DNA from: Neophaeotheca triangularis
Taxonomy: Eukaryota
Length of the DNA: 37,468 nt
Assembly (NCBI GenBank): GCA_054600435.1
Contig: BAAIJX010000052.1
Coordinates: forward strand, 124,001-161,468
Direction of reading: 5' to 3'
The translations under genes and the position numbers were made by a program. How positions within the stretch are numbered: the first letter of the stretch is position 1; every line of letters starts with the position of its first letter. This document shows positions 1,538 through 37,468 of this stretch, one piece after another. The notes under the pieces were generated by a model. It worked only from the letters and a program-made list of their open reading frames with translations. It searched no databases and had not been told where the DNA came from.

Positions 1538-3060
1538 TTACTCAGTGACCCTATCTCTCCCGCTCTCGGCCTCGATCTGCCTGACCTTCTCATCCACCAC
1601 ACCCGCTTTCCTGCGCGCGTCCAGGTACATCATAAACTCGGTGTAGTTCCGAGGCATGACCTTGATATCCCTATCGACGGTAAAGGTGTAGTTGAATTGG
1701 CCAGTGGGCTTGGTGGAGCCGTGTTCGACGTTGCGGACTTTGGAGTCCACTCTGACGACGACGCGGGTGCTTTTGCTGCCGCCTTCCGGGGGCCGGGCTT
1801 GGGCGTCTGGTGAATGCCCATTGTCGACGAGTGGTGGGTCTGTGTATACTACTGTTGCCGTTAGGTAGAGGACGCTGCCGACCGGGACGGGGTTTTGAAA
1901 GGTTGACGGGTCGAGAGAGACAAAGGTCGGGCGTGTGCGGGCGAAGCTCGAGGCACAGCAGAAGGCGAGCTCGAAGGCTGATCTCAGTAGTCGTCCTCCG
2001 AATATCATGAAATTGTGGCTTTGGTATCGTTAGCGTCTGCTCCTTATCGTGTGACAAGGCATGGGAAGGCGGACTCACCGGTTGCGATATTGCGGTTGCA
2101 TAATGTCCGCTGTCGACAGTTTCGTAGCGTCCATGAAGTGCACGTTATCCGGCTTCCGTAAGGGGTCGTTTGGGTCGTGGTACTTGAGTTGCTTCAGCCA
2201 CATGGCGTGTATGAGATCAGACTCCTCGTCGTTAGGTGTCTGCTTCAGCAACGATCGTCTCGAAAGCTCTTTGCGGTGTTGATTGTTCTTCTCGCCTCTC
2301 GCAAACAAACTCTTCTCCTCTTCCGTGTCTGTCCGGACGGGATTGATGCTCACTGGCTTCTTGGTGCCTGGGTCGAGAGACACCATGGTCATCTGGCAAG
2401 TCATCATCACCTCTTCGGGCTTGACTTTCTCGCCTTCTTTGGGCGCCTTCGCCACTTGAAGACTGATCTCCATTGAACTCCTGCCCGTGGCGTAAGTTAC
2501 CTGACCGCTGAGCTCTAGATCGCAGATCTCTTTCAGGGGGTGATTGATGGTGATGCGATCGCAAGCTGCCGTTACCGTGGTCACGTCGTCTCCAGTATGC
2601 TTGTATGCCACAACGCCGGAGAGGGCATCGAGATCCATGAACAACGCACCGAGACGGATATGGCCAGATGCATTGAGGTATGTGTCTAGTAACCAAGGAT
2701 CCTGCGCCAGTGGCAGTACCTGTAACGAGAGTTTTAGTGGACAGTCGCTTGAATTGGCTCCTGGTGCCTACCTACCACGCTATGGTAGCTATCGGACATC
2801 CTCTTGGGTGAAAGATCGCGGTTGGAAGGAGTTTGGGGCGCTTCCGACGGCTGACTCCCATCCTGGGCTTCTCTCTGCTGCTTTCGCAATGCTTCAATCC
2901 ATGGCGTCTGAATCCTACTCTCGGTCAAATCACGAAAGACACCATCAGTCTCTCTTCTGCTTGTTGCGGAGAGGAAGCGCTTTGCCTGTGTGGGAAACGT
3001 GTTGCAGCGTCTCACTAAGCTATATGGACGCGACGCTCTTGTTATCAGGTATCGCGACAT
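1538..3060 (-). CDS. Mitochondrial-type acyl-CoA thioester hydrolase (double HotDog fold, ACOT9-like), 3 exons, ~468 aa
   Basis: Exons 3060-2776, 2719-2079 and 2018-1538 join in frame across introns 2775-2720 (GTAGGT..CAG) and 2078-2019 (GTGAGT..GCTAAC..AAG). Motifs DTYLNASGHIR, MDLDALSGVVAYKH, VTAACDRI, TGRSSME and RNRHNFMIFGG..FELA. Arg/Ser-rich N-terminus resembles a mitochondrial presequence. Confidence 0.9.
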
Positions 3061-3554
3061 TGTATTTTATCGCGTGATTATCGAGCAAAGAATGTACAAG
3101 TAGTCGAATTTTGTGAAGCTGATGATTTCCGTTTCACCGGCGGTCGTTACTACCACGCTTGGTTAAACTAGAGAAATACGCGGGTAATCTGAAGATTCAT
3201 AGAGGTGTAAAGTGCTTGATAGCAGAACAATGGCTCTGTGAAACTACCTCCTGTATGCCTGTAGTCGAGAACAACTTGCCTACTAACTACATACCAGTAG
3301 ATAGGCTTTCCATGTTGGAGGTAGTGCTAGAGTTTGGGATAAGCTGACCGAGCCCCACCCGTGAACACCCGAAGCAATGGGACAGCGAGGCAATCGCGTA
3401 TCGACAAGAGGTATAGATAGATATTCCTTGAACAATTCGCAAAGTGTCGGTCAAACCAAAAGCACCTCAAAAAATCAATGGAATGCATCAAAAGGTAAGA
3501 GGGACCAGAAAATGGTGATTAGATTGGCATAAGGCGTTGGTTAAGAAAAAGTTC

Positions 3555-3562
3555 AAAAAAAA
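3555..3562 (-). terminator. RNA polymerase III oligo(T) terminator (T8) of the tRNA-Pro gene
   Basis: A8 on + (T8 on -), starting 12 nt downstream of the discriminator base at 3574. Confidence 0.8.
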
Positions 3563-3593
3563 TGTAACGATTTGGGTCGGGCCGGGATTCGAA

Positions 3594-3654
3594 CTATTCG
3601 GATATCGTTAGAACAAGACCATTGGAATATGTCTGATTAATAGTAGATGCTTAC
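3594..3654 (-). other. Spliceosomal-type intron (61 nt) between tRNA positions G53 and T54
   Basis: GTAAGC donor, TCTAAC branch motif (CTAAC at 3611-3607), AATAG acceptor. Removal restores CCGGG-TTCGAAT-CCCGG. Confidence 0.85.
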
Positions 3655-3670
3655 CCCGGGGCCTCTCGCA

Positions 3671-3709
3671 TTGATGCTCACGTGAACGTGAACCCGGACT
3701 CAGAGTGTA
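3671..3709 (-). other. Canonical tRNA intron (39 nt) at position 37/38
   Basis: Lies one base 3' of the anticodon (after G37) and has no AG end, so it fits a tRNA-endonuclease intron rather than a spliceosomal one. Confidence 0.85.
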
Positions 3710-3736
3710 CCCTAAGCGAGAATCATACCACTAGAC

Positions 3737-3796
3737 CTTTGAAGCGAAAGTCAGTACTGAGTCTGCTTGGGAGACGTTCAGTTTGGGGAGAGATAC
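3737..3796 (-). other. Spliceosomal-type intron (60 nt) between tRNA positions 9 and 10
   Basis: GTATCT donor, ACTGAC branch motif (CTGAC at 3754-3750), TTTCGCTTCAAAG 3' end. Removal restores the acceptor stem and T8-G9-G10. Confidence 0.8.
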
Positions 3797-4310
3797 CACT
3801 CGACCACTGGACTTCATTTCTAGAGCTGATGTCCTAATTAGGAAGCTAGACCGAAGAATTTTGGACGCAAGCTGATGTAGATTGCTGATGTAAGCCGAAC
3901 GCCATTTTGTATTATAATAGCTAACAGTTGGTCGGCCACGGACATGGGGTGAAGCGTTGATGGTCATTGGAATTAACGAGCAGAGGCAAAGATTCAAGAA
4001 CACCTGGAGCGCCTGAGGCATGATTAATGATGATAAAATCAAGATTCGACCTCACAGATGTCGCCATGACACGACAAAATCGGAAAACACAAGCGATATC
4101 TTTTGACGTCCACTACTTGGATGGTGGCAAATTGGGAAAAAGAGATATAACAAAATTTGAGCCGCGTTATTAGTGTTTTCCACCTATTGATGGAAATGCG
4201 TAGCCTTAGGAAGACGCGAAAAGAGTACTCGTACACGCAAGTTTCCTCCAAGGCTTGAGAAGACTACTGAACACCGAAGCTACCTCCCCGCACTACAGCA
4301 ATACCTATCC

Positions 4311-5594
4311 CTAATCAACCTCATCGAAAGGCACGCTCAATTTCCGCCTCTCCTCCCCGTACAATTCCCATCTTTTGGCAAAATACTCCGCCCCAAGCCC
4401 TGTGCTGACCACACCACCAGTGAGCCACGCACCTTTCTTGAACCAAGCCCAACAGTCACGCACACTCTTCAAATCCACCTTCCTTATCATATATCCCAAA
4501 CTCCCCGCCGCGCCGCCACAAACACCCACGTAGAATACCGGCCCAGCCGCAATCGCATATCCTGCGCCCGCCAGCAGCGCGACTTGCACAGCCGAAACCG
4601 CGGATAAGAAGCGTTTCCCATTAGCCTCCTGCGCGAGAGCGATGCTCTTGATGCCCGCAGCCACGTCATCGCGGATGTCCTGGTAGGCGTAGATCATGTC
4701 GTAGACGAGGGTCCAAGCTACGCAGCTTGCGTACAGACAGACCGCAGACGCGAGAGCGGGCATGTTGTGAAGGAGATCCACGCCCAGAGCCGGAAAGCCC
4801 ATGATTGCGCCCCAACTAAATGTCAGGCCGAGGACGAATTGTGGGTAGTTTGTGACGCGTTTGGCGAGAGGGTAGGTGCCTACGAGAAAGAGGGAGGGGA
4901 TGCCGTAGTAGAGGCATTGGGAGGGGAATTGTAGAAGGATGGCTAGGCCGGTGAAGAGTTGTACGCCGAGGAAGGGGATGGCTTGGTGGACGGAGATCGC
5001 GCCACGGGCAATTGGACGGAGCCGTGTGCGTGTTACGTGAGGGTCGAGGTTGCGGTCCCAGATGTCGTTGATCGTGCAACCTGCGCCGCGCATTATCAGA
5101 GCACCAGAAAAGAAGAGAGTGCTAGTTGTAAGGACGGTTAGGGGCGAAATGATGGGGTCGGTGAGAGGTGCAGCTAGTAGAGTGCTGAAGAGGCAGGGAA
5201 AGAAGAGGTAGTAGGTTCCTGTAGGCTTGTCGAGGCGTATGAGTTCGGCATACGGAACCCATGAGGCTGGTAGCAGCGACAGTAGGCCGGTCGTTGGTGG
5301 TGTGTATGGAGTGGGCTGCGGCTTAATCTGAACCTTTCTTGAGACATTCTGTCCCTCAGTCGACACCCATTGTTTCTGTGCTCTTGAATGTCTCACAGGG
5401 TCCAAACTTTTCCCTTCACTGCGGTAGTCGAACTTAGGTGGCTGCAGAGAGTTATGAGGCAGCGTTCTCAGATGCCTTGCAGATCCGGCGTTCGAACTCC
5501 CAAGTGAGTGTGGCTGGCGCGATAATTTCGAGAAAGAGCAATGTGACGATCGGAGCGTGGAAAGGCGGTATCGCAAGAGGAGTAGGTTCGCCAT
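4311..5594 (-). CDS. COQ2: 4-hydroxybenzoate polyprenyltransferase (UbiA family), mitochondrial, 427 aa, single exon
   Basis: ELIRLDKPTGTYYL, RGAGCTINDIWDRNLDPHVTRTRLRPIARG, YPLAKRVTNYPQ and YDMIYAYQDIRDD motifs; basic N-terminal presequence. Confidence 0.97.
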   Translation of the reverse strand: MANLLLLRYRLSTLRSSHCSFSKLSRQPHSLGSSNAGSARHLRTLPHNSLQPPKFDYRSEGKSLDPVRHSRAQKQWVSTEGQNVSRKVQIKPQPTPYTPPTTGLLSLLPASWVPYAELIRLDKPTGTYYLFFPCLFSTLLAAPLTDPIISPLTVLTTSTLFFSGALIMRGAGCTINDIWDRNLDPHVTRTRLRPIARGAISVHQAIPFLGVQLFTGLAILLQFPSQCLYYGIPSLFLVGTYPLAKRVTNYPQFVLGLTFSWGAIMGFPALGVDLLHNMPALASAVCLYASCVAWTLVYDMIYAYQDIRDDVAAGIKSIALAQEANGKRFLSAVSAVQVALLAGAGYAIAAGPVFYVGVCGGAAGSLGYMIRKVDLKSVRDCWAWFKKGAWLTGGVVSTGLGAEYFAKRWELYGEERRKLSVPFDEVD

Positions 5595-36367: not shown

Positions 36368-37014
36368 ATACCTGTGGAAAGGTTCTGGAAATCGGTATTA
36401 GATCCCACCCGGTTCTCAAAGCTGATTGTGTCGTATGACAATCCGGCTGTCTGAGAAAGCTGGGTGCAAGGAGATGCCTCAGCGAGCCTCCAGGTCGAAT
36501 CATGGCTCAGTAGCTATCCGGCACTCTTTGGCGGTAACTTCTTCGTATCGCACGGTTTCGGACTTCGTTGGGCTGCGTCGCGGAATTCTTCAGTTCAGAC
36601 TGGAGACATGCTTGCGACCGCAGCTGGTTCGTGGTATCCGTGGCTCCTTCGATATTGCAAGAATCAAACACACTTTGGACAGAGAGATGCCTACACGAAT
36701 AGGTCGGGAAGATTCGGTGCCCTTGGGACACGAACAGATGTTGATCATGAAGTCTATGATATCGTTGGCACGTTCACCGCGTCTCAGACCAGTGAAGGCA
36801 GCAAACGTAAGCTTACACTGTCTCAATATAATGGCGTACATGACGTTGACATTGCACAGCGTACCAACGTGCAGATAGGTACTGGCTAACCACCGTATGC
36901 CGAATGTCCAAGGAGGCCGCCTCAGGTAGCGCAGCCGAGTACTCATCACCAAACCACAGGCGATCCAAAGTATTCAAACTATATGTAGAGCCTGTCGCAA
37001 ACCTCTCTATGTGA
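36368..37014 (+). pseudogene. Truncated tandem paralog of the C-terminal part of the HET gene, with an in-frame stop
   Basis: V*ESWVQGDASASLQVESWLSSYPALFGGNFFVSH matches VCERWLKGDVQASLRAQQWLTEHPSIFQADVFLTH of the upstream gene (14/35 identical). TGA at 36452-36454. Phase-1 intron 36807-36859 shortly after SEG, as in the paralog. Confidence 0.75.
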
Positions 37015-37053
37015 GTGAGACTGGAACGCCCAACAAACTTGAATTGATTATAA

Positions 37054-37157
37054 TGGTCTAATGGCTGGTAACCACACAGACCTTCCCCTTTCGCTGACTC
37101 CCCTTAGATTCTCCAGGTATAGGTAAGACTGCGGTTCGAATCCCAGCTCTACAACCC
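37054..37157 (+). other. Degenerate tRNA-like (A box/B box) element with a GT-AG insertion
   Basis: TGGTCTAATGG (A box) at 37054-37064; GTAACC..GCTGAC..TAG at 37068-37107; then ATTCTC and GGTTCGAATCC (B box) at 37133-37143. Does not fold into a full cloverleaf. Confidence 0.35.
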
Positions 37158-37468
37158 TTCGCAAAAGCAAACCAGCCTTCGGGTGCGGGTGCTGCTAAGT
37201 GGTTTCTTCTCCCATTGGGAGTTTCTTTTTGCCTTTGCTCTTTTTTTCTATGGTGCTCAGATGACCAACTGAAGGGAGGTCAGCCTCCCCAGCCTTGCCC
37301 ACCCCAGCACCACCGCAACGAAACCGATGAACGCTGAAATCATCGACATTGTCAGCCTCACAGCCTCGTCCCCCACGTACATGGGAAGCTAAAAGCGACA
37401 AGGACCTTCAACACCAACCTCCCCACCAGCAAGACGGACATACAACGAGCTCTCTCCCCCCCCCCCCC

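Follow-up and report, generated by a model that had tools for sequence, protein, structure and literature searches.

Fungal U6 genes, which are transcribed by RNA polymerase III (Pol III), carry mRNA-type introns, with up to four in a single gene according to the account in PMC5855946, which cites earlier reports of U6 introns (Tani and Ohshima, 1989, 1991; Frendewey, 1990; Canzler, 2016). The same account places spliceosomal introns of ascomycetes in ribosomal DNA (rDNA) and in the U1, U2, and U5 genes, and describes two unusual promoter layouts: in the U6 gene of S. pombe the B block lies inside the intron, and in SNR6 of S. cerevisiae a spacing of ~200 bp from the A block to the B block is tolerated and even needed (PMC5855946). 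Three unrelated intron classes are described in a review of 2023 (PMC10275265) and a paper of 2025 (PMC12530127), in both of which transfer RNA (tRNA) introns are substrates of the tRNA endonuclease alone; the 2025 paper assigns spliceosomal introns to transcripts of RNA polymerase II (Pol II). Here we describe a tRNA-Pro(AGG) gene split by three introns in a 37,468-base stretch of DNA from Neophaeotheca triangularis (the window, along which all positions are counted). What is new about this locus is that mRNA-type introns, known from other non-coding RNA genes, occur in a nuclear tRNA gene; a search of full texts available without subscription turned up no account of such a gene with spliceosomal introns. 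We consider the chances about even that the locus, taken as a whole, is a nuclear tRNA-Pro(AGG) gene that an ascomycete-like fungus maintains, read by Pol III and processed by both the spliceosome and the tRNA splicing endonuclease.

The gene lies on the minus strand, where four pieces between positions 3805 and 3574 join into a 72-nt tRNA-Pro(AGG), with 232 nt from the start of exon 1 to the end of exon 3. Exon 1 (3805-3797; GGTCGAGTG) encodes tRNA positions 1-9, comprising the 5' strand of the acceptor stem together with U8 and G9. It is followed by intron 1 (3796-3737; 60 nt), which is inserted between tRNA positions 9 and 10 and has the form GTATCT..TACTGAC..AAAG, with a TACTGAC branch site (3756-3750) whose branch A is placed 14 nt before the end of the intron, and an AAG acceptor. 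Exon 2a (3736-3710) encodes positions 10-37, including the D arm, the 5' strand of the anticodon stem, and the anticodon AGG, and is separated from exon 2b (3670-3655; positions 38-53) by a middle intron of 39 nt (3709-3671), which ARAGORN puts at 37/38, the canonical position, and whose boundary can be moved by one T. The third intron (3654-3594), 61 nt long, interrupts the T arm at 53/54 and has the form GTAAGC..TTCTAAC..ATAG, with the CTAAC of its branch site at 3611-3607, the branch A again 14 nt from the intron end, and a TAG acceptor. Exon 3 (3593-3574) completes the molecule with positions 54-73, which form the T loop, the 3' strands of the T stem and acceptor stem, and the discriminator base C. 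The resulting cloverleaf is normal apart from an A6.C67 mismatch and a T13.T22 pair, the latter common to the two relatives described below. In the folds of all three pre-tRNAs (from the window and both relatives) the anticodon loop CTTAGGG pairs with CTCTGAG in the middle intron, which thus combines the 37/38 position with the anticodon-intron helix expected of canonical eukaryotic tRNA introns.

In its unspliced form the locus gives zero match from ARAGORN and from Rfam, and ARAGORN finds 0 tRNAs in the full window even with its intron search. Its product is a tRNA-Pro(AGG), and with no Rfam match the locus may work in the manner of U6 or SNR6 but is not a member of the U6/SNR6 family. The frequency with which such a gene could be assembled by chance was estimated by removing candidate GT..AG introns around the 22 B-box-like anchors of the window, which gave 3292 candidate splicings. 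A tRNA emerged from four of them, all four at this locus and all using the 3654-3594 intron. No alternative exon 1 is present within 2.5 kb upstream.

Conservation in a second lineage provides the strongest argument that the split gene is real. Metagenome contigs scanned with a 25-mer spanning the intron-1 acceptor and exon 2 returned five loci, and the same 25-mer gave zero matches in genome contigs and viral contigs. Three of the five metagenome loci have the three-intron design: L004, L005, and L002, which is identical to L004. The remaining two, a plain unsplit tRNA-Pro(TGG) gene with A8 (L001) and a 5'-truncated tRNA-Pro copy (L003), were set aside as irrelevant. In L004 and L005 the units are 199 and 200 nt long, exon 1 is GGTCTGGTG, and exon 2a is identical to that of the window. 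Intron 1 occupies the same position as in the window but is 53 nt long, with a GTTAGT or GTAAGT donor, a TACTAAC branch site, and a CAG acceptor. The canonical intron is 21 nt long and has its first 12 nt in common with the 39-nt canonical intron of the window. The T-arm intron (53 and 54 nt, respectively; GTAAGT, AACTGAC, CAG) lies between positions 54 and 55 rather than 53 and 54, a difference that reflects either a slide of one base or two independent gains at adjacent sites.

Eight exon differences separate the mature tRNAs of the window and L004, and these include two compensatory cross-exon pairs, 5-68 and 52-62 in standard tRNA numbering ((5,67) and (51,61) of the 72-mer), each of which is G-C versus T-A. 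The two lineages have otherwise diverged extensively: synteny between the window and L004/L005 is limited to a 41-nt match inside the gene, the introns do not align, and the flanks are unrelated. The presence of the same three-intron design in a divergent lineage, with compensatory changes, shows that the split gene is real and maintained. Comparison of L004 with L005 gives a finer view of what is kept. Their exons are identical at 72 of 72 positions, the canonical intron at 21 of 21, and the segment of intron 1 from the branch site through the acceptor at 18 of 18, and in the T-arm intron the donor, branch site, and AG are kept while the interior has diverged. Over the introns and near flanks identity is 72-80%, and it is ~75% in the immediate flanks. 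Taken together, these comparisons show that the exons work as parts of one RNA, and they show purifying selection on the three signals that a spliceosome reads. Farther out, bases 1-450 of L004 and bases 1-450 of L005 (reverse strand) are ~96% identical, forming a conserved non-coding block 90-540 nt upstream of the split tRNA gene; it holds no long open reading frame (ORF), whichever frame is read, and nothing in Rfam matches it.

All six of the noncanonical introns, two in the window and four in L004 and L005, have GT..AG ends and a CTRAC motif whose branch A stands 11-14 nt before the end of the intron (in the relatives, 11-13 nt), and the alignment of L004 with L005 shows these splice signals kept while the intron interior drifts. 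Set beside the extended donor consensus of fungi (GTRNGT-like), the GTATCT donor of intron 1 in the window is without the G at +5, and the window's T-arm donor, GTAAGC, is also the donor of one control intron; the relatives have GTTAGT and GTAAGT. Intron lengths of 53-61 nt are comparable to those of the mRNA intron candidates in the window (50-150 nt). From these signals we infer that excision of the introns following positions 9 and 53 is most likely the work of the spliceosome.

The organization of the gene resembles that of fungal U6 in that a small RNA gene of the Pol III class contains canonical splice and branch sites within introns that are otherwise unconserved, and in that promoter boxes and introns are interleaved. 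It differs from U6 in that its host RNA is a tRNA, which is outside the spliceosome, so that the explanation of U6 introns by reverse splicing at the active site is not directly applicable, and in that both Pol III transcription and splicing are deduced here from sequence. Unlike in S. pombe U6, the B box is exonic and sits at the edge of an intron, and an intron of the endonuclease type coexists with the spliceosomal ones. The introns of ascomycete rDNA offer a second parallel, as spliceosome-type introns in an abundant, structured RNA that is not made by Pol II (Bhattacharya et al, 2000, as cited in PMC5855946), although the host there is a Pol I gene and here a tRNA gene.

Sequence following the gene points to the polymerase involved. 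A run of eight T residues (T8; 3562-3555), a candidate Pol III terminator, lies 11 nt past the discriminator base and is followed by a T5 at 3550-3546, both on the minus strand. Counted from the tRNA end, the T8 of the window begins at +12, the T5 and T7 of L004 begin at +4 and +13, and the T6 of L005 begins at +14. Against the background of the window, the probability that a 20-nt interval contains the start of a T run is 0.018 for runs of at least five and 0.0018 for runs of at least eight, and on the corresponding strand runs of at least five number four in the 1225 bases of L004 and three in the 1049 bases of L005. Inside the units such runs are absent from all three genes, in which the longest internal T run is three in the window and four in the relatives. 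The first-pass annotation of this DNA, made from the sequence alone, had pointed to the T8, and this claim is borne out: the run is improbable by chance and an oligo-T is conserved in the relatives. Oligo-T within 14 nt of the tRNA end is the best support for Pol III and the sole feature that is both improbable and conserved. A conserved oligo-T together with the absence of internal runs of at least five matches the needs of a Pol III gene and not those of a Pol II gene, which favors Pol III. We infer that the unit is most likely a Pol III gene, a plausible assignment that we hold at somewhat better than even odds.

The first-pass annotation had further argued that the introns avoid T runs longer than three. 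This is correct for the window, where the longest run is three, but it does not serve as evidence for Pol III and was rejected in that role. The observation is what chance would give, with 53% of shuffled versions of the three window introns also free of T runs longer than three, and intron 1 of L004 and L005 carries a T4. Among seven ORF-joining control intron candidates in the window, which comes from a GC-rich genome, none exceeds T4, and the T4-free stretch at 4034-3563 on the minus strand is about as long as expected from the density of T4. As for the proposed compatibility of the introns with Pol III transcription, the units of the window and relatives, with no run of at least five, are formally readable by this polymerase.

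Further arguments concern the internal promoter. Candidate boxes were scored for matches to textbook consensus strings of 11 positions, TRGYNNAGTGG for the A box. In the genomic DNA of the window, the native A box (AGGTCTAGTGG; 3738-3728) matches at 10 of 11 positions, with T8 of the tRNA replaced by the A of the intron-1 acceptor, and the B box (AGTTCGAATCC; 3595-3585) also matches at 10 of 11. A third string, TGGTCGAGTGG (3806-3796), consists of the base at -1, exon 1, and the donor G of intron 1, and matches the A box at all 11 positions. These three strings, all on the minus strand, are present where they had been reported. Only two strict matches to TRGYNNAGTGG occur on both strands of the window, and the exon-1 look-alike at 3806 is one of them. 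However, the corresponding string in L004 and L005, CGGTCTGGTGG, matches at 9 of 11, without the first T and the equivalent of A14, and the perfect match is therefore lineage-specific; in the window it owes its A to the acceptor-stem mismatch base A6. A second A-box-like 11-mer, AAGTCCAGTGG (3814-3804, minus strand; 10 of 11), overlaps the start of exon 1 at an offset of -9. The two overlapping 11-mers (3804-3814 and 3796-3806, minus strand) form a near-tandem 8-nt repeat, GTCCAGTG/GTCGAGTG, at the gene's 5' end, which may point to a short local duplication confined to the window lineage.

Both GT-AG introns had been described as lying within the promoter boxes. They do interrupt the boxes, but at the 5' edge rather than in the middle, leaving nine of the 11 bases of each box contiguous in the downstream exon. 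The associated proposal, that the AG ends of the introns rebuild the boxes in DNA, does not hold: only the G of the two displaced bases is restored, because both upstream exons end in G, and the restoration is not conserved, as the B box of the relatives shows. What looks like rebuilding by the AG arises automatically when an intron comes after a G, and it is not a selected feature. The native A box, in comparison, matches at 10 of 11 positions in the relatives too. B-box-like strings also occur in the canonical introns: GGTTCACGTTC in the window (3694-3684, minus strand; 9 of 11) and AGTTCAATATC, unscored, in the 21-nt canonical intron, which L004 and L005 share at 100% identity. These strings recall the intronic B block of S. 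pombe U6 but could be due to chance.

One of the distances between boxes resembles that of SNR6. The exon-1 look-alike and the B box are 211 nt apart in the window and 178-179 nt apart in the relatives, in line with the SNR6-like A-to-B spacing of ~200 nt that had been suggested; from the native A box the distances are 143 nt and 117-118 nt, respectively. A TATA-like element, ATTATAATA (3910..3918, minus strand), is found ~105-113 nt upstream of exon 1 in the window and is a candidate site for the TATA-binding protein and TFIIIB or a candidate Pol II promoter. The relatives have TATATAA or TATATAT at -57 to -51. The TATA-like element present in both lineages could serve TFIIIB, as in SNR6, or a Pol II promoter. 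The upstream TATA-like element, the distance from A-like box to B box, and the oligo-T terminator are all shared with SNR6 of S. cerevisiae. Unlike in SNR6, where the B block is downstream of the terminator, the B block here is inside the gene; the distance from the TATA-like element to the A-like box varies by lineage (~105 versus 51-57 nt); and the A-like box, only 9 of 11 in the relatives, is accompanied by a second and better-conserved A box 61-68 nt further in.

Together, these features suggest how the gene could be expressed. TFIIIC would bind the B-box core in exon 3, and initiation would occur upstream of exon 1 at a site set by the TATA-like element, the A-like sequence of exon 1, or both, in a layout like that of SNR6 and S. 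pombe U6 with boxes 180-210 bp apart. Transcription would stop at the oligo-T run just past the tRNA. In the nucleus, the spliceosome would then meet a precursor in which the first exon is only the leader plus 9 nt. Its turn would have to come before that of the other enzymes, as the acceptor, D, and T arms are unable to form while the two GT-AG introns remain. RNase P, RNase Z, and the tRNA splicing endonuclease all read the folded tRNA body and would therefore follow, the last of them removing the 37/38 intron. The specific version of this scheme, in which the TATA-like element, the exon-1 surrogate A box, and the B-box core 180-210 bp downstream together drive Pol III and two rounds of splicing by the spliceosome precede RNase P, RNase Z, and the endonuclease, is tentative, and we think it rather more likely to be wrong in some part than right. 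If it is correct, the pre-tRNA would be a natural substrate of the spliceosome, a single RNA would be served by both eukaryotic splicing systems, and the A6.C67 mismatch in the window lineage could be seen as the price of a perfect A box in exon 1.

Several points weigh against transcription by Pol III and processing by the spliceosome as set out above. Splicing is normally coupled to Pol II. The genomic B box of L004 and L005, CAGTCGATCCA, matches at only 7 of 11 positions, and the exon-1 A-box mimic of the relatives has just the nine matches given above. Both sets of spacings (117-143 and 178-211 nt) fall outside the range of 30-90 bp between A and B boxes given for tRNA genes in PMC5855946. 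The A box in exon 2, with its 10 matches, would be expected to start transcription inside intron 1, which would lose exon 1 from the product. Further points come from RNA libraries. Three contigs from two of these (runs X2 and X4, from two studies) stay colinear with genomic sequence across each of the three introns, and a spliced joint across any intron is not seen in them; the libraries may hold DNA, and contigs cannot show where RNAs end. Their cover is confined to 3580-3876 of the interval 2400-5200, in which missing cover proves nothing. One contig extends 71 nt upstream of exon 1 and another 30 nt, and a reach of 71 nt exceeds what a Pol III start directed by the A box would predict. If the contigs do represent RNA, they would correspond to an unspliced precursor with a long leader, but they may equally be DNA. 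Finally, paralogues without the T-arm intron in a related strain mean that the split copy need not be essential, and the copy in the window, with its weak GTATCT donor, AAG acceptor, and A6.C67 mismatch, could be drifting.

The leading alternative is a takeover by Pol II, in which a TATA-driven, capped non-coding transcript would start well upstream and be spliced co-transcriptionally like an mRNA before RNase P, RNase Z, and the endonuclease act, with the boxes surviving only as tRNA structure. This explanation fits the TATA-like elements found upstream in the window (ATTATAATA, about -105) and in L004 and L005 (-57..-51); TATAA is rare in the window (24 occurrences on both strands, or 0.32 per kb of strand). 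It also fits the 71 nt of sequence upstream of exon 1 covered by an RNA-library contig. The imperfect B box and exon-1 mimic of the relatives look as if box function at the DNA level were unselected, and recruitment of the spliceosome normally depends on Pol II. However, oligo-T is kept in all three genes despite flanks that are only ~75% identical, and Pol II is not known to require such a run; internal runs of at least five T are absent; and the contigs from RNA libraries may be DNA. Moreover, spliceosomal introns are described in fungal genes transcribed by Pol III (U6) and Pol I (rDNA) in PMC5855946, and the U6 genes show that transcripts of Pol III can be processed by the spliceosome. We regard Pol II transcription as a real but minority possibility.

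A second alternative is that the window copy, or the entire family, is a decaying or unexpressed pseudogene with intron-like insertions, with ordinary tRNA-Pro(AGG) paralogues doing the work. The signs of possible drift in the window copy would be expected in this case, and the RNA-library contigs contain no observed spliced RNA. DNA from a related strain (run X3) includes contigs that join exon 2b straight to exon 3 (3594), which represent ordinary tRNA-Pro paralogues without the T-arm intron, and eukaryotic tRNA genes with an insertion in the D or T arm are usually regarded as pseudogenes, according to the discussion of such insertions in PMC4090602. A pseudogene would not be expected to keep its exons and splice signals while intron interiors and flanks diverge, as L004 and L005 do, to retain an identical canonical intron (21/21) between flanks of ~75% identity, or to undergo two compensatory changes in stems between lineages. 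In the related strain, the in-gene differences listed from run X3 comprise five substitutions, one insertion, and one deletion, all intronic, and among these listed differences, which leave 110 further ones (106 substitutions and four indels) outside the list, none falls in the 72 exon bases. The same strain has T7 where the window has T8, with one base missing at 3555. Decay of the gene thus appears unlikely. Across 3714-4350, run X3 yields two contig versions at ~60x each, compared with ~120-140x elsewhere, which looks like two haplotypes.

The third alternative, that the two extra introns are ectopic tRNA introns cut by the endonuclease at bulge-helix-bulge (BHB) motifs, draws on up to three introns per tRNA gene, at D-arm and T-arm sites as well as the canonical 37/38 position, in Cyanidioschyzon merolae, nucleomorphs, and archaea, on the existence in some eukaryotes of such introns cut without the spliceosome, and on 53/54 as a known archaeal site (PMC4090602), but it is very improbable and was rejected for lack of a central helix: in a simple central-helix search, which is not a full BHB model, five of the six introns have no possible 4-bp helix between the intron start and the start of the 3' exon and none has a conserved one, the introns of those other organisms are BHB endonuclease substrates or 3-24 nt long (the latter in nucleomorphs, as given in PMC4090602) compared with 53-61 nt here, and the GT, the CTRAC at 11-14 nt, and the AG found in all six are the very signals that L004 and L005 conserve.

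The division between spliceosomal and tRNA introns would be blurred by a conserved tRNA gene dependent on both machineries, and such a gene would provide a natural test of whether the spliceosome can work on a Pol III transcript that lacks a cap and is not U6. The question of the promoter is directly testable, because each box exists in separable copies. With ARAGORN and Rfam both blank at this locus, tRNA gene finders would miss real genes of this kind.

Two possible origins for the introns were considered. Copying of a repeated introner-like element was rejected, as a second copy is absent from the window. An origin of intron 1 by tandem duplication of the D-arm region is unsupported by shuffle controls. 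Exon 1 with the donor GT matches tRNA positions 9-19 (G9-T19) at 10 of 11 positions in all three genes, and this likeness is partly inherent to tRNA-Pro, in which G7 U8 G9 G10 U11 parallels G15 U16 G17 G18 U19. When the D-arm match was extended into the intron, its score was reached by 578 of 2000 shuffles for the window, 2000 of 2000 for L004, and 59 of 2000 for L005. Alignments of the introns with the rest of the gene likewise showed no excess over chance, with scores reached by 206-600 of 1000 dinucleotide shuffles.

The window is eukaryotic and fungal, and its protein genes encode a COQ2-type UbiA prenyltransferase, ALG10, a DUF3405 protein, a mitochondrial carrier, and a JmjC protein. Their closest protein clusters are mostly from Ascomycota. 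The COQ2-type UbiA prenyltransferase gene (5618-4311) is on the same strand as the split tRNA gene and immediately upstream of it.

Two other places in the window have tRNA-like features. On the plus strand, a tRNA-like relic at 36984-37160 has an A box, TGGTCTAATGG, at 37054 and a perfect B box, GGTTCGAATCC, at 37133, along with the complementary strings TGTAGAGC and GCTCTACA separated by ~150 nt; no tRNA resulted from 840 candidate GT..AG splicings of 36940-37175, and the element is perhaps a tRNA gene that has decayed or a repeat of tRNA origin. On the minus strand at the window edge (50-160), a class-II-like D-arm/A-box string, TGGCCTAGCGG, at 148 and AGTTCGATCC at 73 are 75 nt apart, and AG again precedes the T loop; the 452 candidate splicings of 1-230 yielded 0 tRNAs. 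At the opposite end, the window terminates in a run of 10 C (37459-37468), possibly an artefact of assembly or of the contig end.

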